Assembly: GCA_965267345.1 (NCBI GenBank)
Contig: OZ253947.1
Span: 330,814 to 394,813, forward strand
DNA: 64,000 nucleotides
Direction of reading: 5' to 3'
From: Minisyncoccota bacterium
Lineage (GTDB): Bacteria; Patescibacteriota; Minisyncoccia; Phycocordibacterales; UBA2100
Part shown: in pieces, positions 8,581-39,512 of the stretch
Layout: each line of letters opens with the position of its first letter
How positions within the stretch are numbered: the first letter of the stretch is position 1
Position numbers and translations under genes: made by a program
Notes under the pieces: generated by a model
Databases searched by the model: none
Told to the model about the DNA's origin: nothing
What the model saw: only the letters and a program-made list of their open reading frames with translations

Positions 8581-9975
8581 ATGGCACGACCATCATTTGA
8601 CGACATTACACCGCCAGCTCGCGGAAATGATACCGAGACTCCGTCCACTGCACCGCACGCACAGGACGACACACCCACTGCGGAAGAATCGAGTGCGACA
8701 TCTGAGCCTGCATCGATTCGTAACGTTGCGGCGCCGGAGACAAAAGCACGTGTCGAACGACGCGCACGACGAGCTGAGCGTCGCACGCTCGGCGGCAGCG
8801 ACGGCCCAACTGGCCGCTCACACAAAGGAATGACACGCATGGCCATGTGGGGCGGTGCAATCGTGGTGCTGCTCATTGCACTCACGGGAGTTGGGTTTCT
8901 CTTCATTGGCAAAACAACCCTGACCGTTGAGCCACTATCTGAGCGCATCACGCTCGGCGAAAATGTCGTCCACACTGCCTACACTGAGCCGGAAATCGGC
9001 GAATTGGGCTACACCGTGGTATCAGCAACACAGGAAGCGTCGGAAACGATCACCGCAACCGGTAGTGAGTATGTTGAGGAGCGCGCATCAGGGCGCATCG
9101 CTGTGTACAATAACTACAGCTCGGCAAGTCAGCGCCTCATCAAAAACACGCGCTTTGAAGCACCTGACGGCCGCATTTACCGTGTGACAAACTCATTCGT
9201 CGTACCCGGAATGCCCGACGAGGATACCGCAGGGCGCATTGAGGTCACGGTGCACGCTGATGTTCCCGGCTCTGATCAGAATCTCACCGCACTGGGTACA
9301 CGCCTGACCATTCCCGGCCTTGAAGGCGACCCGCGCTACAATGCATTCCACGCTGAGTTGATCACGCCAATTACAGGCGGCTTTGAGGGTGAACGTCCTG
9401 TCGTTGACGAAGCAACCCGTGAGGCAACCCGCACGGCATTGCAGGACCAGTTGCGCCGGCAAGCAGCGGATGCAGCACACGCGGCAGCCGGTGATCTGTA
9501 CGTATTCGACACCGCACTCCAAGTGCAGTTTGAATCACTTCCCATGACCACTGATACCGAGGGCAACGCAACCGTACGTGAACGCGCGCTCATTTCAGCA
9601 GTCGGCTTTACCATGCACGAACTCGCACGTACGCTCGCGCAGAGCGCACTGGCAACGCCGGCTGACGGCACCATCCGCATCGCAAATCCTAACGAGCTTA
9701 CCTTCCGCTTTGTGGGCGACGATGTATCAGTTGCCAATGATGCACTCATTCAGTTCACCCTCAGCGGCACCAGCGTGCTCGTGTGGGATATTGATGTTGA
9801 CGCACTCAAGCAAGACCTCGTCGGTAAGCACAGCACTGTCTTAAATTCGGTCATGAGCGGCTATCCGGGTATTGAGAGCGCCCAAGCAACCATTCGGCCG
9901 TTTTGGAAGAGTGAGTTCCCGAGTGACACTGATAATATTTCGGTCGAAATTACTGATCCCGTACAGAGCCAGTAG
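8581..9975 (+). CDS. hypothetical membrane-anchored protein (charged N-tail, one TM, large extracytoplasmic domain)
   Basis: Start at MARPSFDD. TM helix AMWGGAIVVLLIALTGVGFLFIG. No family recognised. Possibly a partner of the upstream ATPase. Confidence 0.45.
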   Translation: MARPSFDDITPPARGNDTETPSTAPHAQDDTPTAEESSATSEPASIRNVAAPETKARVERRARRAERRTLGGSDGPTGRSHKGMTRMAMWGGAIVVLLIALTGVGFLFIGKTTLTVEPLSERITLGENVVHTAYTEPEIGELGYTVVSATQEASETITATGSEYVEERASGRIAVYNNYSSASQRLIKNTRFEAPDGRIYRVTNSFVVPGMPDEDTAGRIEVTVHADVPGSDQNLTALGTRLTIPGLEGDPRYNAFHAELITPITGGFEGERPVVDEATREATRTALQDQLRRQAADAAHAAAGDLYVFDTALQVQFESLPMTTDTEGNATVRERALISAVGFTMHELARTLAQSALATPADGTIRIANPNELTFRFVGDDVSVANDALIQFTLSGTSVLVWDIDVDALKQDLVGKHSTVLNSVMSGYPGIESAQATIRPFWKSEFPSDTDNISVEITDPVQSQ

Positions 9976-11892: not shown

Positions 11893-12879
11893 ATGTCAGA
11901 CTACCAAGTAACACTTCCGTCAAAGCCACGCGCGATTACCGAAAAGGAATTCGCGGGCACGTACGAGATTGACGGCCTCTATCCAGGATACGGACACACA
12001 CTCGGCAATTCGCTGCGTCGTATCATTTTGTCGTCACTCCCTGGTGCTGCGATTACGCAAGTCAGCATTGACGGCGTACCGCATGAATTCACAACGATTG
12101 ACGGAGTCGTGGAGGACACCATCGTGCTGCTCCTCAATATTAAAAAGGTGCGTATCAAAATGCTCACGGATGAGCCACAGACGCTGAAGCTCAACATCAA
12201 GGGCCCAGGTACCGTGACTGCAGCAGATATTGATGCACTCGGACAGGTTGAAATTTTGAATCCTGAACAGCACATCGCTGAGGTCACCGGCAAGGTGACA
12301 CTCGAAATCGAGATGCAGGCAGAGCGTGGCTTGGGCTACGTAGCAAAGGAAACGCTCCACAAAGACCGTGTTGAGATCGGTGCCATTGCACTTGACGCCG
12401 TATTTTCACCAATTAAGCGCGTCAACTACGAAGTTGAAAACATGCGTGTCGGCGACCGTACCGACTTTAACCGCCTGCGTATGTTCATCGAAACTGACGG
12501 CACCATGACGCCACGTGAAGCGCTGGAGAGCGCTATCGAGACGATGATTCACCAATTGAAGGCTGTGGTCGGCTTCCAAGAGGAGAGCGAGCACGGTGAC
12601 ACTGACACGACACCTGCAGCTGATACCGTTAGCGCACCTGAAGAGCGCGCGGTTGCGGCAACAAAGGAAGCAGACAAAGAAGTCTTCAAGACTCGCGTTG
12701 CTGAACTTGAGCTGTCAGCGCGTGTTGAGGCATCGCTCGACGAGGCGGGTATTCGCACCGTCGGTGGACTTGCCCGCAAGCGAGAAGAGGACATTCTTGG
12801 TATTGAGGGACTCGGACAGAAAGGCTTGCAGGAAATTAAGCGTGCACTGTCGAATCTTGGTATTACACTTCGCGTATAA
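11893..12879 (+). CDS. rpoA: DNA-directed RNA polymerase subunit alpha
   Basis: N-terminal dimerisation domain plus C-terminal alpha-CTD (ELELSARVEASLDEAGIRTVGGL). Confidence 0.9.
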   Translation: MSDYQVTLPSKPRAITEKEFAGTYEIDGLYPGYGHTLGNSLRRIILSSLPGAAITQVSIDGVPHEFTTIDGVVEDTIVLLLNIKKVRIKMLTDEPQTLKLNIKGPGTVTAADIDALGQVEILNPEQHIAEVTGKVTLEIEMQAERGLGYVAKETLHKDRVEIGAIALDAVFSPIKRVNYEVENMRVGDRTDFNRLRMFIETDGTMTPREALESAIETMIHQLKAVVGFQEESEHGDTDTTPAADTVSAPEERAVAATKEADKEVFKTRVAELELSARVEASLDEAGIRTVGGLARKREEDILGIEGLGQKGLQEIKRALSNLGITLRV

Positions 12880-12901
12880 TCTGTGGTAGGGTACTGTCGC
12901 T

Positions 12902-13258
12902 ATGAAGCATCACAAAGCACAACGAAAACTGGGACGCGTACGCAAAGTGCGCGTGTCGCTGCTGCGCAGCCTCGTGCGTTCGCTCGTGATGCATGGCCGT
13001 ATTGAAACCACAATCGCTAAGGCAAAAGAGCTTCGTCCGCAGATTGAAAAGCTCATCACGCTCGCAAAGAAAGACACCTTAGCATCGCGTCGCCTCCTTG
13101 CGGCACGTCTGGGCAATGATCGTGACGTCTCAGCAAAACTGCACGATGAGATCGCCCCACGTTTTAAGGATCGAGCGGGCGGCTACACACGTATTGTGAA
13201 GCTCGGCGCATTTGCTGACACCGCACGTGATAAAGTCATTATCGAATTTGTTGACTAG
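12902..13258 (+). CDS. rplQ: 50S ribosomal protein L17
   Basis: MKHHKAQRKLGRVRKVRVSLLRSLVRSLVMHGRIETT. Confidence 0.9.
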   Translation: MKHHKAQRKLGRVRKVRVSLLRSLVRSLVMHGRIETTIAKAKELRPQIEKLITLAKKDTLASRRLLAARLGNDRDVSAKLHDEIAPRFKDRAGGYTRIVKLGAFADTARDKVIIEFVD

Positions 13259-13259
13259 T

Positions 13260-13613
13260 ATGGGAACGGCTCGCACACATACCTTCGATGCTCATGGAAA
13301 GCGCCTCGGGCGCCTTGCGTCTGATATCGCACACATCCTGCTTGGTAAAGATGCACCTGACACGGCAAAGCACGTCGTTGCACCCGTGCGCGTCACTGTT
13401 GAGAATGTCGCACAGCTCGACATTCCTGAGGAAAAGCGCACCACAAAAGTGTACACACGATACTCAGGACACCCGGGCGGATTGAAAAAGGAAACGCTCG
13501 AAGACGTTATTGCCCGCAAAGGGGAGGCAGAGGCACTGCGACGCGCCGTGTATAACATGCTCCCTGCAAACCGCCTGCGTAAAGCACGCATGAAAAATTT
13601 GATCATTTCATAA
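13260..13613 (+). CDS. rplM: 50S ribosomal protein L13
   Basis: MGTARTHTFDAHGKRLGRLASDIAHILLGK. Start chosen at the internal Met of ORF 13212-13613. Confidence 0.85.
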   Translation: MGTARTHTFDAHGKRLGRLASDIAHILLGKDAPDTAKHVVAPVRVTVENVAQLDIPEEKRTTKVYTRYSGHPGGLKKETLEDVIARKGEAEALRRAVYNMLPANRLRKARMKNLIIS

Positions 13614-34111: not shown

Positions 34112-34374
34112 TGTGTATCGCGCATGCTAAACGTCGCACAATTTTAAGAGTGCTGAAACAGTGGTAGAGGAGCGAGAGGTTTCATTAGCGACGAAAACGA
34201 CACTGGAAATCGATACGATAGGATAAGAATGGATACTCACTCATGCGCGCGGATCTTTTTTTATGCACCAAATACATGTATAGCGCAGCGAGATCACGGA
34301 ACGAAGCCACATCGCGCCCAGCGGCTGTAGCGCGGTGTAGTGCGCTATGCACATATATATACGTCGCAAAAGAT

Positions 34375-34390
34375 ATATTGTACGACACAT
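34375..34390. repeat. 16-nt exact repeat ATATTGTACGACACAT, copy 1 (copy 2 at 36429-36444)
   Basis: The two copies are identical. Copy 1 lies in the AT-rich non-coding stretch, amid several TGTACGAC-like motifs. Confidence 0.6.
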
Positions 34391-35097
34391 ACATATATTC
34401 TAATACGTCCGCTCTATAATGCAACCTCTCACTTCCCTGTGGTTCTTGTGCGACGTGGTGTGTGGATGTTCTTTTGCGATGCACATGTTGTTTCTTGTAC
34501 GACGCTCGCCCTACCGTGGCTGTGTTGTGTTGAATGCTTCGCAAAAGAATGGATACAAGGTCGTGGTGTAAACCTTTTCGGAAGGTCCCCTTCCCTCTAG
34601 GTATACGACACGTTCTTTGAAAGCTTGGTGGAAACAAAAAGAGCCACACAGTGTGTGACTCTTCAGTTGTGTAATTCACTCAGTGGTACATAGTACCAAC
34701 ATCGGCCGGGATAACACCCGCTACGATTCTCGTGAGGACAACGGTTCTGCTCGAATACCATCAGGTCAGAGACGTACTAGTGTAAAAGAAGACGTACGTA
34801 CTTCCCCGCACTACAATGACCCTATGGTTTACAGATCGTCCCCGTGTTTCACTTTGCCGTTTACGCGAGACCAATAGCTACCGCGGCCACTATAAAAATG
34901 CGCCAGTCCGGTAGGTACTACTATGCACCACTCAATGAACTACTTATTCAATTACGTAGAGCTTGCGCACTCACACAACTGAATGCCTAAAGTATAACAT
35001 ATTCCCTTCCACCCAGCTTTCAGTGATGAAAGCAAACCACAAGACACTCACCTACGACAGTGATACAATTACCACGAATCTTTATGGTGATCATGAT

Positions 35098-35499
35098 ATG
35101 AAATGTAAGCTTGAGTACGCCCTGGTGGCAGAGAATGCAATTATCGACTCCGATTCAAATAAACTCACTGTCGTAGGCCTTTTCAGTAAAATACGAATAC
35201 CGACTGATGGTGGGTCTGTAAGAGTTAATTTTGTTGTTGCAGGAAAAATATCATTGGAAGACATCGCCGGCGAAGATCCTCGGGAACTCACGGTGAAGAT
35301 CGTCAAACCGAACGGAAAGGTTCTCGCTCAAGAAAGTATGAGAGGGCCGCTTGATACCGACGTCACGTTTAGAGCATTTTTCACGCTGATTGAGTTTAAG
35401 GAGGTAGGTTCCTACCATGTGAAGGTTGAGTTTGGTGGCGAAGAGCTCGAGATTAGCAATACTATTGGTTCTTTCAAGGTTGTTGAACGCGAAGCGTGA
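35098..35499 (+). CDS. hypothetical beta-rich protein (island ORFan)
   Basis: 133 aa. A GGTGA ribosome-binding site sits 7 nt upstream of ATG 35098. Low-GC codon usage. A 4-nt gap separates it from the next gene. Confidence 0.45.
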   Translation: MKCKLEYALVAENAIIDSDSNKLTVVGLFSKIRIPTDGGSVRVNFVVAGKISLEDIAGEDPRELTVKIVKPNGKVLAQESMRGPLDTDVTFRAFFTLIEFKEVGSYHVKVEFGGEELEISNTIGSFKVVEREA

Positions 35500-35503
35500 G
35501 CCT

Positions 35504-35884
35504 ATGGAACGAATACAGAATCCGTGGAGCACTTCTCAAGATGACGGAACGGGACATAATCGGCCGAGGATAATTACTTTGGGCAAAAGCCAGTCAGATG
35601 CCATTGACGAACTACGTGACCTTTACAGCAAAACAAGTAAAGACCTAGAGAGAACTCAGGAAGATGTATCGGAGCTGAGAGGACTAAAAACTATAGTAGA
35701 TAAGTACAGCAACCTTCTTATTCTTGGGTTCGCCATTTTGCTTGTAATGGTTGTAAGTATTCTAATGATCACTTTCCAATCCTTTATGGAAACGTATCGC
35801 TACAAAGAAGCGAAGTACAATGAGTACGTAAAGGCTGTTGAGTCACTGGATTCAAAAATAGAAGCCTTACAGACTGAAAAATGA
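35504..35884 (+). CDS. hypothetical protein with coiled-coil segments and a C-terminal TM helix (island ORFan)
   Basis: 126 aa (MERIQNPWSTSQDDG...LLILGFAILLVMVVSILMITF..). Co-directional with, and 4 nt after, 35098-35499. Confidence 0.45.
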   Translation: MERIQNPWSTSQDDGTGHNRPRIITLGKSQSDAIDELRDLYSKTSKDLERTQEDVSELRGLKTIVDKYSNLLILGFAILLVMVVSILMITFQSFMETYRYKEAKYNEYVKAVESLDSKIEALQTEK

Positions 35885-35887
35885 AAA

Positions 35888-35907
35888 ACACCACCCTACT
35901 CTCTTGG
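35888..35907. repeat. about 20-nt direct repeat ACACCACCCTACTCTCTTGG, copy 1 (copy 2 at 36392-36412, ACCACCGCCCTACTCTCTTGC)
   Basis: Two near-identical copies bracket the minus-strand gene 35915-36388 almost exactly. Confidence 0.55.
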
Positions 35908-35914
35908 GGTGTCT

Positions 35915-36388
35915 CTAGTGTGCCTTTCTAAGGAGTGTACTTGGTTTGTACCCAACGACCGTGAACTTCACAGCAACATTCGGCGCACCACCGGATGTGT
36001 AATACGCCAAAGGAGTTCCTACAAAACGAAATAGATCAGCTGATGGAATCTGTTCGTCCTTTAACTTCCCAAAGTCCACATGGACACTTGGAATAACAGG
36101 TAAGTATACGAAAGTATAGTCGTCTATGGGTTGCACTTGATAGTACCATTGTGTAGCTTCTTTACCTTTTACTGGGACCACGTTGACCACAATATCTTTA
36201 TCCCCTTCTGCACGAGTTCCATCTGGATTAAAAAGTGCTTTCTTAACGTTGAGTTCCTCAGCGTGTTTATCAAGGTATTCAAGCAGCGCCAGAACATCTG
36301 CAATAACCATGTCGTGAATAATAGCATCAAACTCCTCCTGAGTTATCTTCGAGGGGTCTATCTCTAAGGTGTGTTGCTCTTCGAGCAC
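35915..36388 (-). CDS. hypothetical protein (island ORFan)
   Basis: 157 aa, acidic N-terminus (MLEEQHTLEIDPSKITQEEFDAIIHDM..). Convergent with the upstream two-gene operon. Flanked by the 20-nt direct repeats. Confidence 0.5.
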   Translation of the reverse strand: MLEEQHTLEIDPSKITQEEFDAIIHDMVIADVLALLEYLDKHAEELNVKKALFNPDGTRAEGDKDIVVNVVPVKGKEATQWYYQVQPIDDYTFVYLPVIPSVHVDFGKLKDEQIPSADLFRFVGTPLAYYTSGGAPNVAVKFTVVGYKPSTLLRKAH

Positions 36389-36391
36389 ATG

Positions 36392-36412
36392 ACCACCGCC
36401 CTACTCTCTTGC
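36392..36412. repeat. direct-repeat copy 2 (ACCACCGCCCTACTCTCTTGC)
   Basis: See 35888-35907. Confidence 0.55.
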
Positions 36413-36428
36413 GACCAGCGCAGAGGTC

Positions 36429-36444
36429 ATATTGTACGACACAT
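36429..36444. repeat. 16-nt exact repeat ATATTGTACGACACAT, copy 2
   Basis: Identical to 34375-34390. Immediately followed by TATAAT (36445-36450). Confidence 0.6.
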
Positions 36445-36510
36445 TATAATACCTGCTTTACCGCTACCCTATAAGTACCGAGGCTCTGCGGGGCGAATTG
36501 ATGATAGTAT

Positions 36511-36759
36511 GTGTTTATGTCCTCCGGCATCAAGGTACAGCGAGGCAGAGAGAGTTGGGACTACATTTACACTACACTCGGCTTTACCCTAACCATAGAG
36601 GGTGTCTTGGTGAGCTATGTTCCCTTTCCCCACTGGCAGGCAAATATTTTTATTGCCGGTTCTCTGTTTATACTCACCATTAAATGCTTCCTAGAAAGCG
36701 AGTGGCTGCACAATGAACTGATCGGGATTAAGGAACGTTATGAAAACGAGTGGCGATAG
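36511..36759 (+). CDS. small hypothetical membrane protein
   Basis: 82 aa with two hydrophobic segments. Weak ribosome-binding site. Confidence 0.3.
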   Translation: MFMSSGIKVQRGRESWDYIYTTLGFTLTIEGVLVSYVPFPHWQANIFIAGSLFILTIKCFLESEWLHNELIGIKERYENEWR

Positions 36760-36861
36760 TCTCCCCTTTTTAGTGCAAGCACGTACGGAACATGTTCTAT
36801 TGACACAATATATATTTTATGTGATAGTTTTATTCCTCGAACTACAGCATGGAGAAATGGT

Positions 36862-36963
36862 ATGGATCGGCAGAATGCGCAGCAATTCGGATTGGGACTA
36901 GGAAAATACGTCCTGGTTCCGATGCTCATCTTCATCATTGCGGCTCTTGCCATTTGGGGCTAG
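36862..36963 (+). CDS. 33-aa single-TM peptide (MDRQNAQQFGLGLGKYVLVPMLIFIIAALAIWG)
   Basis: Upstream TTGACA (36800-36805), 17-nt spacer, TGtGATAGT extended -10, and GGAGA ribosome-binding site. Followed by a hairpin plus T-run terminator. Confidence 0.45.
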   Translation: MDRQNAQQFGLGLGKYVLVPMLIFIIAALAIWG

Positions 36964-36975
36964 GACGTCCGTGGG

Positions 36976-37014
36976 GGCTCGGCTAAACGATTCTGAGGCC
37001 GAGCCCTTTTCGTT
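36976..37014 (+). terminator. intrinsic terminator (GGCTCGGC...GCCGAGCC + CTTTTCGTT)
   Basis: 8-bp GC-rich stem followed by a T-run, directly after the 33-aa ORF. Confidence 0.5.
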
Positions 37015-37136
37015 GCCACCATGCGTCGCTTTCGGGCAGCCTAACCAAAGGGGTGCTCTAAGCGCCCCGCCTCACTCTTTTTACTCTTTTTGTTACGAGT
37101 CACTACCCTACACTATTTCGTATAGGTAAAGTAAAA

Positions 37137-37174
37137 CGCTCGGACCCCGAGGGACAGGGAAAAGGGTCCGAGCG
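37137..37174. repeat. strong hairpin (CGCTCGGACCC...GGGTCCGAGCG, 11-bp stem) in a non-coding hairpin cluster
   Basis: One of four consecutive stem-loops in the non-coding stretch 36964-37345. No flanking T-run on either strand. Confidence 0.4.
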
Positions 37175-37291
37175 CTACCGGCTATGTCTTTGGGGTTCCG
37201 AGACCTTTTCGGGTTTGGGGGGGAAGGTCTCAAAAAAGACACACCGGCACTTCTAGTGTGCCCCTATTAGCAGCATGAGTCAAATGTACAA

Positions 37292-37319
37292 GCGGCCTGT
37301 CGTCGAAACGACAGGCCGC
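37292..37319 (-). terminator. hairpin (GCGGCCTGTCG-TCGAAA-CGACAGGCCGC), probable terminator of minus-strand gene 37346-37591
   Basis: 11-bp stem immediately downstream (minus sense) of the stop at 37346, followed by a U-rich stretch in minus sense. Confidence 0.4.
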
Positions 37320-37345
37320 CCCTTCGTGAACGATCGCCGAGGATG

Positions 37346-37591
37346 TCACCATGACTCGAGAAATAGTGGCTGTAGCCGAGCTTGGTATACTCCCGCGAAA
37401 GCAGTCTCGTAAGAACTCACTACATAGAAACCGTTCGCTCCGTCCACGGACAGGACAGTTTTGCAACACACTGGGAACAGTTGCGTATGTGCCTCATCGT
37501 CAGCATACATGGGCGTCGTAATTTCACTACCCACTGGAAAACCGACTCCGGGGCAACCAACCTGCGTAACGTTCTCATAATCTGAGCTCAT
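37346..37591 (-). CDS. hypothetical 81-aa Cys-containing protein (island ORFan)
   Basis: An AAAGGGGA ribosome-binding site lies 5 nt upstream of ATG (MSSDYENVTQVGCPGVGFPV...). A TATACT -10 lies upstream in minus sense. Confidence 0.45.
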   Translation of the reverse strand: MSSDYENVTQVGCPGVGFPVGSEITTPMYADDEAHTQLFPVCCKTVLSVDGANGFYVVSSYETAFAGVYQARLQPLFLESW

Positions 37592-37852
37592 CGCTTTCCC
37601 CTTTCTTCTTATATGCTGTCTTGTCTGCAGCTGAGTATATGCGCAAATAGCACGAAAAGAAAGACGCACCGCGCAATAGAAGTAAGGCGAGGCGCTCCAA
37701 GCGGCCCCGCCGCGTTGGTATCTCCTGGTACCCCACTGCTTTGACGAGAGAGACGGTCGATAGCTGTTTCCACGTATCCAAATCAAATACCGGTATACAT
37801 GAAAAGAGTGCGTTTAGGGGGTCTCGGAGACAGCGAGAAATGAGAGCACTCG

Positions 37853-38215
37853 TTAGTAGTGACGCCGCCCACGCAAGTGGTGCATCCGTGGATGCAGATA
37901 GATGTAAGCAATGTGTTTGAGTGAATCTGTTATGTGAGCATATGCGTAGCTCCCTACTTCCCTGATCTGAGACGCCGCATAGACACCTATATCGGCGAGT
38001 GCTTCATAGAGCCCGCGAACAAACAAACGGCGTATTGCGTAGCTTCGTCCAAACCCAATGGCGATCTGAATGACGGCCAATATGCCGAAATTGGTGACAT
38101 TGTAAGGCATACCAAACAGTGGTAGCAAAATGAGATTGACCCCAAACATGAGGGCAACCCCGACGGTGACATTAAGTGCGCTTTCAGTAAGCGATTTTCT
38201 ACACGTATCTCGCAT
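37853..38215 (-). CDS. hypothetical membrane protein (2 TM plus basic C-tail)
   Basis: 120 aa. TM segments VTVGVALMFGVNLILLPLFG and NFGILAVIQIAIGFG. No clear ribosome-binding site. Confidence 0.35.
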   Translation of the reverse strand: MRDTCRKSLTESALNVTVGVALMFGVNLILLPLFGMPYNVTNFGILAVIQIAIGFGRSYAIRRLFVRGLYEALADIGVYAASQIREVGSYAYAHITDSLKHIAYIYLHPRMHHLRGRRHY

Positions 38216-38351
38216 ATATGCTTGCGGTGCTTACTAACCCCATAGTTACACTACCACAGACCAATGCAATGGCGTCGTGTTTATAACCCGTTGACGTACA
38301 GTAAAAATCGCTGCACTATGTGAAGGGCTGGTAACGTAGAGGAGGTATCCA

Positions 38352-38477
38352 ATGCGTAGTAAGCCAAGTACCGTGGGAACTGAAGAGGAGCATATGGGCG
38401 TTAAGGATGCTCTCGTGCTGGTCATCCTGGCGAGCATCGCGTTCGTCTTCGTCTCATATATCTTTTTTGGCCCATAA
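38352..38477 (+). CDS. 41-aa single-TM peptide (MRSKPSTVGTEEEHMGVKDALVLVILASIAFVFVSYIFFGP)
   Basis: GGAGG ribosome-binding site 6 nt upstream. Upstream TTGACG-17-CACTAT. Terminator at 38486-38520. Absent from the ORF track (shorter than 60 aa). Confidence 0.5.
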   Translation: MRSKPSTVGTEEEHMGVKDALVLVILASIAFVFVSYIFFGP

Positions 38478-38485
38478 GACCTTTT

Positions 38486-38520
38486 GCGCTGCCTCGCCAT
38501 CACGAGGCAGCGCATTCTCT
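38486..38520 (+). terminator. intrinsic terminator (GCGCTGCCTCG...CGAGGCAGCGC + T-rich)
   Basis: 11-bp stem followed by ATTCTCTTTT. Confidence 0.5.
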
Positions 38521-38688
38521 TTTAACAAACGACCATGGTACCAGCTAGGACTTGAATATGCAGTGCTGAGTACCAAACGGGTCGTGAGAGCCCTCCTTTT
38601 TCAGTGAGAAGTAGGGGCCATGTTATTTTTTGACAATTCACTTTTACGGGTACATCATTACCGTCCAACATGTAAAGGAGGTCAACGA

Positions 38689-38829
38689 ATGACGATACTG
38701 GGATCTCGGCCCAACGAGCTGACTCGGTTTCAGAAGGAGCATCCACGACTTTGGGCGTTCCTGTGCTTCAGTTTGCCGGCACTCGTCTTGGGCATGGGCA
38801 TCGGCCTTGCCCTGCACGGTCATTTCTGA
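38689..38829 (+). CDS. 46-aa single-TM peptide (MTILGSRPNELTRFQKEHPRLWAFLCFSLPALVLGMGIGLALHGHF)
   Basis: AAAGGAGG ribosome-binding site 6 nt upstream. Upstream TTGACA-17-CATCAT. Terminator at 38852-38882. The ORF-track entry 38620-38829 is an upstream extension. Confidence 0.5.
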   Translation: MTILGSRPNELTRFQKEHPRLWAFLCFSLPALVLGMGIGLALHGHF

Positions 38830-38851
38830 CCTATTTTTTCACTCTGTTGGA

Positions 38852-38882
38852 GCCCCGCTGCGTACCAGCGGGGCTTTTGTTT
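38852..38882 (+). terminator. intrinsic terminator (GCCCCGCTG-CGTAC-CAGCGGGGC + TTTTGTTTT)
   Basis: 9-bp GC stem plus T-run. Confidence 0.55.
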
Positions 38883-38954
38883 TATAGGTTTATTGACAGC
38901 TCAGTGAAATGAGCGTATCGTCACAGGTCCAACCAATGAAAGGAGGGTTGCACA

Positions 38955-39158
38955 ATGTCTGACGTTGCAGAACACACCGTCGTCGATGATGGACCGGAAG
39001 AACACGAGCACGACGAGAACTGCGGCCACGACGAGGGGGTATCCGAGGATACTACTCCTGCGGGATTCCCTCGTTGGGCACGCATCCTGATCGTCCTTGC
39101 TATGATCATCCTGATCATGTTCGGCGGCGGCGAGTTGCTCAACACGTTCATGCGCTAA
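38955..39158 (+). CDS. 67-aa single-TM protein with acidic His/Cys-rich N-terminus (…EEHEHDENCGHDEG…FPRWARILIVLAMIILIMFGGG…)
   Basis: AAAGGAGGG ribosome-binding site. Upstream TTGACA-17-TATCGT. Terminator hairpin at 39181-39218. Confidence 0.55.
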   Translation: MSDVAEHTVVDDGPEEHEHDENCGHDEGVSEDTTPAGFPRWARILIVLAMIILIMFGGGELLNTFMR

Positions 39159-39180
39159 CCGCACCGAGTACCTGAGTTGG

Positions 39181-39218
39181 GAGAGCCCTGCTCTTCTTGA
39201 ATGAGGAGCTGGGCTCTC
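39181..39218 (+). terminator. terminator-like hairpin GAGAGCCCTGCTCTTC-TTGAAT-GAGGAGCTGGGCTCTC
   Basis: Imperfect long stem with a TTGAAT loop, directly after the 67-aa ORF. Related to the hairpin at 39458-39494. Confidence 0.45.
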
Positions 39219-39301
39219 TTCATACCTGCGTCATTTGACATTACCCTGTTTCCTATGGCACGGTACACCTCCACCCACTGAGAACGGAAAGGAGGATTCA
39301 T

Positions 39302-39436
39302 CATGGAAAAAGAAGAAGCACCACGCAAGGTTAAAGATCTCGGGGCGACGATGCACAAGTGGGCATTCGTCCTCGTCAGTCTCGCTATCATTATCTGGGT
39401 TGCGTGGGATCAGCTGATCGGCCCCATGGTCAACTA
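39302..39436 (+). CDS. 44-aa single-TM peptide (MEKEEAPRKVKDLGATMHKWAFVLVSLAIIIWVAWDQLIGPMVN)
   Basis: AAAGGAGG ribosome-binding site 7 nt upstream. Upstream TTGACA-like promoter. Shares the H-x-(K/R)-WAF motif with the 46-aa peptide. Terminator at 39458-39494. Confidence 0.55.
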
Positions 39437-39457
39437 ACGAGTACAAGTATCACGGTG

Positions 39458-39494
39458 GAGAGCCTAGCTCTCTTGAATGAGAGCTAGGCTCTTT
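39458..39494 (+). terminator. intrinsic terminator AGAGCCTAGCTCTC-TTGAAT-GAGAGCTAGGCTCT + TTT
   Basis: Perfect 14-bp stem, the same TTGAAT loop as the hairpin at 39181-39218, and a T-run. Confidence 0.6.
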
Positions 39495-39512
39495 TACTGT
39501 CCGCCGCGTTTT

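Follow-up and report, generated by a model that had tools for sequence, protein, structure and literature searches.

The present analysis concerns a 64-kb stretch of contig OZ253947.1 (hereafter the window) and, within it, an island of low guanine-plus-cytosine (GC) content at 34112-39512 that lies between a gene for an M23 peptidase and a PNPOx-like gene. The feature that organises this locus is a dif-like site at the replication terminus (S1, 34363-34386, plus strand), which the original prediction, made from the composition and gene content of the island, had overlooked. We consider it probable that the island is variable DNA lying immediately to the right of dif at the chromosome terminus of a Kaiserbacteria-like Patescibacterium. 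Judged by its M23 protein, the window falls in Candidatus Kaiserbacteria / Paceibacterota, and the best relative is only 67-69% identical in this protein. Related loci were anchored on M23 and comprised 80 genome loci and 80 metagenome loci (160 in total).

Composition and setting of the island

The flanks of the island are as first described, with the gene for a coiled-coil, EnvC/DipM-like M23 peptidase upstream and, downstream, genes for a PNPOx-like protein and an FAD-linked oxidase. The baseline, taken from windows of equal size in the rest of the 64 kb, is 54.2 +/- 1.3% GC, and the backbone measures 53-55% instead of the 55-60% that had been claimed. The dip in the island is real (48.1% GC, z = -4.7), but it is not uniform, being confined mostly to 34363-36823 (2.46 kb), where GC falls to 44.5% (z = -5.6) and the tetranucleotide L1 distance to the backbone reaches 0.46, against 0.20 +/- 0.02 (maximum 0.25) in the controls. 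The right half of the island, 36824-39512 (2.69 kb), lies within the backbone range at 51.4% GC (z = -1.7), with a tetranucleotide distance that is still high despite this (0.34). Windowed GC and tetranucleotide composition both deviate, most strongly at 34363-36823.

The repeats, the hairpin cluster and the independently signalled micro-open reading frames (micro-ORFs) that had been reported are all present in the island. The statement that no family could be assigned holds for most of its ORFs, which are without a match in Pfam, NCBIfam, PHROGs or PADLOC, but not for two that match the Pfam families DUF6941 and DUF7220, both of unknown function. Hidden Markov model searches of the island ORFs with Pfam and PADLOC found neither defence nor housekeeping families, and phage families were likewise not detected apart from a single PHROGs match described below; no RNA gene was recovered in the island by tRNA scans or with Rfam, whether at its gathering or at a permissive threshold. 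No literature mention of DUF6941 or DUF7220 was found in a full-text search.

Relatives repeat the order gltX-M23-[gap]-(PNPOx)-(FAD oxidase)-SPFH, with a gap between the flanks that measures 0.7-8.4 kb and holds unrelated contents. In the closest relatives (L122 and L123, 68% M23 identity) the M23 gene is followed by 338 nt, the dif-like site, about 490 nt and SPFH, and the island is absent. None of the island ORFs found a match by tblastn in any of the 160 related loci, relative to all of which the region is an indel; because the ORFs are absent while the flanks are syntenic, the comparison identifies the region as a true variable slot, in line with the earlier view of it as accessory DNA. 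The variability extends over the whole interval from dif to SPFH, PNPOx and FAD oxidase included, which spans 0.5-8 kb across the clade and mostly holds no obvious mobile genes. Variable DNA and insertions that exploit Xer classically gather at the terminus dif. BLAST of the island DNA against phage (50,697 records) and plasmid collections gave no match, nor did exact-protein contig look-ups with the island proteins, and a protein-based metagenome scan returned no relative above 69% identity.

As a side observation, the dif-SPFH gap of one relative is filled by a LAGLIDADG-like ORF with a GFTDGEGCF-type motif (L006:11557-12105, minus strand), a further sign that the slot collects selfish DNA.

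A conserved dif-like site downstream of M23

S1 (GTCGCAAAAGATATATTGTRCGAC) is near-palindromic and is the sole island DNA conserved in relatives. Its 24-bp core, GTCGCAAAAGATATATTGTACGAC, lies within a 28-bp near-palindrome at 34361-34388, and the unit conserved across the clade is 24 bp long (GTCGCAAAAGATATATTGTGCGAC), with flanking sequence that is not conserved. When the genome loci were searched with up to three mismatches allowed in the 18-nt core, the site was found after M23 and on the same strand in 63 of 80, at 0.03-7 kb downstream; it is also present in 47 of the 80 metagenome loci, most of the others having less than 1.5 kb of downstream sequence. About 75% of relatives carry it once, on the same strand, just past M23. 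The M23 proteins are only 45-67% identical, and the conservation of 24 bp beside a protein this divergent points to a protein-binding or recombination site and not an RNA gene. A promoter or the 5' end of a non-coding RNA was dropped as a candidate because only the 24 bp are conserved and nothing downstream of them, and a general promoter motif was rejected on the grounds of a single occurrence in 64 kb.

The site is rare as well as conserved. Peptide strings that recur in spurious gap ORFs of the relatives all derive from this single DNA motif. One copy of the 18-mer AAAGATATATTGTRCGAC is present in the window, at 34369-34386 (0.05 matches expected by chance in 64 kb), and S1 scores 41.8 of 45.3 bits with a position weight matrix (PWM), which is unique in the 64 kb. 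A full site is present once in the window, and the related loci, of ~21 kb, have one apiece; secondary dif-like sites number seven in 1.1 Mb of the relatives. A scan of metagenome contigs returned no match to the exact site variant of the window.

The architecture of S1 is that of two arms about an AT-rich centre: the 28-mer is self-complementary at 24 of 28 positions and has the centre GATATAT. Aligned in register with reference sequences taken from PMC3025954, it agrees with the dif sites of Escherichia coli and Bacillus subtilis at 17 of 28 positions each (shuffle P ~6e-4), and among themselves the known dif sites of different phyla agree at 17-19 of 28; the agreement with the predicted site of Frankia, also from that source, is only 12 of 28. 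In the complete chromosome OZ244961.1 the site stands at 49.5% of the length, a position that would lie opposite the origin provided that the record begins at dnaA.

A lone half-site that resembles one dif arm, GTCGCACAAT (found as TTGTGCGAC on the minus strand), stands right after the M23 stop codon at 34133-34142 and is conserved, 200-400 nt left of the full site, in the window and L002-L006, the six closest genomes. Further half-sites of 9-12 nt, in both orientations, occur within 200 nt right of S1 (34446-34454, 34470-34480, 34495-34503 and 34536-34548), and these may be scars of earlier recombination. The word TTGTRCGAC has six matches in the 64 kb, four of them in 34133-34503 and a fifth in the degenerate copy S2 described below. 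A folded phage attachment site (attP) of the CTX type, formed by the left arm of S1 and 34470-34486 (96 nt apart), was considered and rejected, as the pairing involves the left arm and sequence outside it and omits the centre and the right arm.

Replication terminus signals at the site

In the related loci GC skew is +0.033 upstream of the site against -0.067 downstream, with the upstream value greater in 46 of 48 loci, and the share of ORF bases on the plus strand falls from 95% upstream to 33% downstream. The long ORFs of the window behave alike: 30 of 32 are on the plus strand left of S1 and 20 of 27 on the minus strand right of it. The site thus coincides with both the shift in GC skew and the switch in gene orientation.

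An unbiased k-mer screen identified AGGGAAG as the most polarised 7-mer, with 238 copies pointing toward the site and 15 away, within a polar family of G-rich purine words (AGGGAAG, AGGGGAG, GGGAAGG and others). The direction of these motifs tracks the replichore and not the gene strand: across more than 60 related loci, plus-strand genes right of the site contain 12 motifs on the top strand and 64 on the bottom, and minus-strand genes left of it contain 31 and 10. In the window the ratio of top to bottom copies is 39:2 left of S1 and 2:35 right of it, and the switch falls between 33618 and 34432. Polar motifs of the type of FtsK-orienting polar sequences (KOPS) and architecture-imparting sequences (AIMS) therefore converge on the site along both replichores. 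Polarity that follows the replichore independently of gene strand is the defining behaviour of such FtsK-orienting sequences, and we regard the AGGGAAG family as a candidate for the KOPS-like code of the Paceibacterota. The nearest member of the family to S1 is a CTTCCCT 45 nt to its right, the distance seen in the native dif flanks of relatives; its alternative readings, as a minus-strand ribosome-binding site or as part of a terminator, were dropped in favour of a polar-motif copy.

The link to Xer recombinases and inovirus-like contigs

Seven relatives that lack the standard site carry a variant, TTCGYTTTACATATATTGTGCGAA, at the same place (L001, at 12257-13315, and L009, L045, L046, L070, L071 and L080), and polarity switches there too, with top-to-bottom counts of 108:10 on the left and 5:77 on the right. 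In all seven the variant lies 40-200 nt upstream of a conserved gene for a recombinase of the XerC/D family, which matches the NCBIfam XerD model at 1e-62 and the XerD structure 1a0p in the PDB at 7.8e-33. In L081 the standard site itself adjoins the gene for another tyrosine recombinase, also of the XerC/D family.

Exact copies of the site were also found in four contigs classed as viral. In two of them, L082 (272-295) and L084 (236-259), a gene for a Zot-type assembly ATPase and inovirus-like genes stand immediately right of a perfect copy, and every polar motif lies on the permissive strand, opposite to that of the genes. The 25 related contigs of 4.4-5.8 kb (L086-L110) look circular, with a terminal overlap of 121 nt in 24 of them and of 25 nt in one; since these are mostly without the site, with half-sites in L093 and L086, they are not by themselves proof that it is used as an attP. 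Filamentous phages are the classical exploiters of Xer (PMC5357621).

A tailed-phage contig with terminase, portal and capsid genes (L083) has the exact site at 9086-9109, 277 nt from its end. The polar motifs in L083 are oriented with the contig's own genes, and the contig may represent a free phage whose attP is dif-like.

On this evidence S1 is very probably the chromosomal dif site at the replication terminus, and we propose it as a candidate chromosome dimer resolution site and terminus marker. A few observations weigh against this assignment. The GC skew of the window itself is weak (-0.014 left and -0.037 right of S1), S1 is more palindromic (24 of 28) than canonical dif and has its symmetry in the outer and not the inner arm positions, and neither a Pfam search of ten large window ORFs nor a search for Xer revealed a Xer or FtsK gene in the 64 kb. 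The palindrome could instead be the operator of a transcription factor, or a fork-arrest (Ter-type) site, that merely lies at the terminus; near-perfect palindromes are typical of dimeric DNA-binding proteins, extra half-sites lie nearby, and dif recombination is here inferred from sequence and not directly observed. This is nevertheless very unlikely, as the neighbouring genes differ among relatives and leave no conserved regulated partner, a XerC/D-family gene adjoins the variant site in seven relatives and a recombinase gene the standard site in L081, the inovirus-like elements that carry the site are of the kind known to exploit Xer, the match to proven dif sites is in register, and KOPS-like motifs converge on the site.

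The two replichores meet at S1, where gene orientation, GC skew and KOPS-like motifs invert. By analogy with what is known of Xer and dif, a XerC/D-family recombinase encoded elsewhere in the genome would bind both arms and resolve chromosome dimers, and an FtsK-type translocase would be steered to the site by the AGGGAAG-type motifs.

The low-GC core between S1 and S2

The most deviant DNA of the window begins at S1. The segment 34387-36416, with 44.6% GC, runs from S1 to a second dif-like sequence, S2 (36417-36440, plus strand), a degenerate direct copy in which the left arm has decayed and 16 central-right nucleotides, ATATTGTACGACACAT, are identical to S1. The two form a direct repeat (D2) with 22 of 26 positions identical and 2,054 nt between them, and among the identical 16 nt are a non-consensus A and four bases of flank. 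S2 and the dif of relative L005 have similar right flanks, which align at 82% over 45 nt (E = 0.001). A possible third site, S3 (36800-36823, minus strand), is inverted and degenerate; it scores 9.1 bits with the PWM, a value reached somewhere in 3% of shuffled windows, and it overlaps the -35/-10 promoter (TTGACA-17-GATAGT, with TG) of the first micro-ORF described below. S3 may be coincidental; if real, it would bound the 82-aa gene that follows S2 in the manner of a dif module.

Within the core, the first ~570 nt are non-coding and hold four bottom-strand KOPS-like clusters and scattered half-sites; a 164-aa ORF across this part (34185-34679, minus strand) was judged spurious, as it crosses the dif site and has no homologue. 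The first gene, at 35026-35499 (plus strand, start maybe at 35098), encodes a 157-aa, all-beta protein of the DUF6941 family (Pfam PF22091, E = 3e-8, 34.5 bits against a cutoff of 27). We searched three island proteins (this one, orf157 and the DUF7220 protein) in a collection of 5.8 billion proteins, in which the DUF6941 protein found only itself; its single-sequence AlphaFold2 model (predicted local distance difference test, pLDDT, of 60) is a generic beta-sandwich, and a fold search of the PDB gave no significant match, only generic beta-sandwiches at E > 1e-3. It is followed at 35504-35884 (plus strand) by a 126-aa protein with one predicted transmembrane (TM) segment and charged, probably helical flanks, which belongs to no family and has no match in Pfam, PHROGs, PADLOC or NCBIfam. 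A 157-aa orphan, orf157 (35915-36388, minus strand), likewise found only itself among the 5.8 billion proteins, and its AlphaFold2 model (pLDDT 41) is unusable. It is bracketed by an 18-nt direct repeat, D1 (CACCRCCCTACTCTCTTG; 35889-35906 and 36394-36411, 17 of 18 identical, two copies against 0.04 expected), the second copy of which abuts S2 and which has a weak third copy at 37101-37118. Beyond S2, at 36511-36759 (plus strand), lies the gene for an 82-aa hydrophobic protein, probably membrane-embedded, with no family and no match in Pfam, PHROGs, PADLOC or NCBIfam.

The position of dif at one end of the core and of a degenerate direct copy at the other suggests insertion by Xer, and we lean slightly toward the view that Xer recombination brought the AT-rich DNA of 34387-36416, possibly to 36823, into dif. 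Such an event would leave an intact S1 on the left and a hybrid, half-decayed S2 on the right, and this is the geometry expected after Xer-mediated integration, as in integrative mobile elements that exploit Xer (IMEXs) and dif modules. The putative cassette would carry no integrase, consistent with our finding no recombinase or integrase domain in any island ORF, and its orphan cargo would be the DUF6941 beta-protein, the membrane protein with charged flanks, the 157-aa orphan and the 82-aa membrane protein. Horizontal acquisition, which had been put forward for the whole island, is on this basis plausible only for 34363-36823, where the composition is deviant and dif-like repeats stand at both ends, and not for the right half with its near-native GC. 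If the cassette were excised, the junction at the empty site would read ...ACGTCGCAAAAGATATATTGTACGACACATTATAATACCTGC... and that of the circle ...CCAGCGCAGAGGTCATATTGTACGACACATACATATATTC....

The alternative in which nothing was inserted deserves to be set beside this. The island could be native, fast-evolving, AT-biased terminus DNA with orphan or de novo genes, and S2, S3 and the half-sites could be decayed duplications of dif. Several results that speak against insertion are those that such an origin would explain: all 12 polar-motif matches in the core are in the native, permissive orientation (0 top, 12 bottom), the CTTCCCT right of S1 is at the distance seen in native flanks, S2 scores only 6.7 bits with the PWM (reached somewhere in 11.5% of shuffled windows) and S3 is also weak, and no empty site, circular form, second copy, donor or homologue was found in the searches, in which the nearest relative has 67-69% M23 identity. 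The varying length of the dif-SPFH interval across the clade, mostly without obvious mobile genes, fits it as well. Also unfavourable to insertion are the lack of replication or phage genes in the core and of any similarity between it and the site-bearing contigs that encode Zot. Against a native origin stand the 10-point fall in GC, a tetranucleotide distance twice that of the largest control, the 16 nt shared by S1 and S2 with non-consensus positions included, and the rarity of secondary dif-like sites among the relatives. Polarity does not exclude insertion, because integrated inovirus-like elements are also fully permissive; FtsK crossing DNA that lies between a replichore and a functional site would be expected to select permissive polarity. 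The native polarity and the CTTCCCT spacing could accordingly reflect either long residence or native origin. We regard native origin as possible but doubtful, and continue to favour insertion of the core by a small measure.

Micro-ORFs and hairpins of the right half

The right half of the island is populated by small genes with their own signals. Terminator-like sites in the island number 12, against 5.1 +/- 2.6 expected. Five micro-ORF units encoding single-TM peptides of 33-67 aa each have a TTGAC(A/G) promoter element, a GGAG-type ribosome-binding site and a terminator-like hairpin, and the ribosome-binding site is AAAGGAGG-like in three of the five. All are on the plus strand. The first (36862-36963) encodes 33 aa with a single TM segment (MDRQNAQQFGLGLGKYVLVPMLIFIIAALAIWG) and has its own promoter and terminator. 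The second (38352-38477, 41 aa) has the ribosome-binding site GGAGG and a terminator at 38485-38514; the third (38689-38829, 46 aa) has the promoter element TTGACA at 38630 and a terminator at 38849-38877. The fourth (38955-39158, 67 aa, promoter at 38893) joins an acidic N-terminus to its TM segment, and the fifth (39303-39437, 44 aa) ends in a perfect 14-bp terminator stem at 39459-39492. These last two units (38955-39225 and 39303-39500) are tandem paralogues that share a (R/K)WAxxL start of the TM segment (RWAxxL) and homologous terminators with the loop CTTGAATGAG.

Between the first and second units lie a non-coding hairpin cluster and two minus-strand genes. The cluster (36965-37345) packs five or six strong stem-loops into ~380 nt and folds with z = -4.1 on the plus strand and -5.6 on the minus strand; it matches nothing in Rfam and lacks conservation in relatives, and it may consist of terminators and/or a structured 3' untranslated region of the 81-aa gene, or a small RNA. 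The 81-aa ORF (37346-37591, ribosome-binding site AAAGGGGAAAG) is nested in a longer, spurious 146-aa ORF, belongs to no family and has no match in PADLOC or NCBIfam. The second gene (37853-38215) encodes a 120-aa membrane protein of the DUF7220 family (Pfam PF23858, E = 3.6e-13), which matches phrog_4276 (E = 3.1e-12, function unknown), the sole PHROGs match of the island, and has one 73-aa relative in the 5.8-billion-protein collection.

The adjacency of the island to dif, its many tiny single-TM genes, which recall inovirus genomes, the phage family phrog_4276 and the inovirus-like prophages at the same site in other contigs all invite the reading that the island is a decayed prophage, filamentous or other, in which the micro-ORFs are leftover coat or morphogenesis proteins. 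We judge this rather unlikely. No gene for Zot, Rep, a single-stranded DNA-binding protein or a pIII-like protein was found, and DUF7220 stands alone among the PHROGs matches; tblastn against 38 loci of the viral collection, 29 of them inovirus-like, gave none at E <= 0.01, the single listed match having E = 0.047; the phage records held no DNA match; and the part with the micro-ORFs has near-native GC.

The original prediction had named the island the most likely location for a novel system, a proposal that our results do not support, since there are no matches to defence families and no enzymatic domains, and the contents are conserved nowhere. A functional system, whether for defence or made up of membrane peptides like type I toxins together with antisense or structured RNAs, would suit the five hydrophobic micro-ORFs with their independent transcription, the unusual degree of structure in a non-coding stretch and the lack of any gene with a known function. 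PADLOC returned no match for ten island proteins, a set without the 33-aa micro-ORF, and thus no defence model was matched; neither enzymatic or nucleic-acid-binding domains nor a conserved neighbourhood was found, no antisense promoters were identified, and the components lie on both strands, are mutually unrelated and straddle compositionally different DNA. Such a system is most improbable here, and nothing indicates a coordinated multi-gene one. The most economical reading of the right half is that of lineage-specific accessory genes of the envelope or membrane accumulating at the terminus: the remaining 2.7 kb would be lineage-specific terminus DNA with DUF7220, the 81-aa protein and the duplicated single-pass micro-proteins, most likely envelope or membrane accessories.

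Relation to known Xer systems

The locus most resembles XerCD/dif with FtsK-KOPS, as in E. coli and B. subtilis, in that a short site with inverted arms and an AT-rich centre, matching at 17 of 28 positions in register, lies at the switch of gene strand and GC skew, XerC/D-family recombinases are present in the clade, and G-rich purine polar motifs converge on the site, AGGGAAG here and GGGNAGGG in E. coli (as quoted in PMC3325230). It differs in that the site is distinct in sequence and symmetric at 24 of 28 positions, with outer arms GTCGCA...TGCGAC and not inner ATAA/TTAT, and in that the clade also has a xer-linked variant site.

That arrangement of variant site and recombinase recalls xerS-difSL (PMC5357621). 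XerS/difSL of streptococci and lactococci and XerH/difH of Helicobacter and Campylobacter are alike in having a Xer-family gene next to the site, as seven relatives do, and the symmetric arms here would fit a homodimeric recombinase. Unlike those systems, the window and most relatives have no adjacent xer gene, the adjacent recombinase of the clade scores best against XerC/XerD models and not against those of XerS or XerH, and the site is 24-28 bp long instead of 31 or 40 bp.

The core shares with IMEXs (CTXphi, VGJphi, TLCphi and the gonococcal genetic island) a foreign composition, a position at dif, bounds formed by an intact site and a direct copy degenerate in one arm, and a lack of integrase, and filamentous-phage-like elements that encode Zot occur at the same site in other contigs. 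IMEXs differ in being far larger and in carrying replication, morphogenesis or transfer genes, whereas Rep, Zot and coat functions are all missing from the 2-kb core and no free or empty form was found; its mobility is for these reasons only inferred, and we do not class it as an IMEX or dif module, alike though the geometry is. The pdif modules of Acinetobacter are closer in scale, as small cassettes (0.4-2 kb) of one to three genes without a recombinase and with dif-like bounds, and the 82-aa gene between S2 and the inverted S3 has this form. Here, unlike in pdif modules, the setting is chromosomal at the main dif and not a plasmid, S1 and S2 are in direct instead of inverted orientation, the weak S3 overlaps a promoter, and the cargo has no recognisable function.

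Implications

The locus is a known kind of feature and not a categorically new system, and orphan AT-rich DNA among housekeeping genes is explained here without invoking one. Full-text searches on dif, Xer and chromosome dimers in Patescibacteria and the candidate phyla radiation (CPR) listed no paper that describes such a site or its polar motif. The results supply a large uncultured phylum with a concrete dif motif that can be tested and with a candidate KOPS-like motif, and the site would serve as a landmark for checking and orienting Patescibacteria assemblies with respect to terminus position and replichore polarity. Xer-dependent insertion, by inovirus-like elements and possibly by cassettes without an integrase, would be a way for genes to flow into very small genomes.

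More speculatively, and with greater doubt than confidence, we suggest that the Paceibacterota may use a distinct, near-perfectly palindromic dif in two flavours, one of them coupled to Xer, together with an AGGGAAG-type FtsK-orienting code, and that this dif may be a main gate through which foreign DNA such as filamentous phages and integrase-less mini-cassettes enters these minimal genomes, in which case the cargo of tiny membrane proteins would shape the envelope of an obligate epibiont.

Finally, in at least 16 relatives a minus-strand protein of 210-235 aa that has no Pfam match is encoded between M23 and the dif-like site (for example L007:11242-11946, and also in L012, L014, L026, L055 and L073); this protein is absent from the window.

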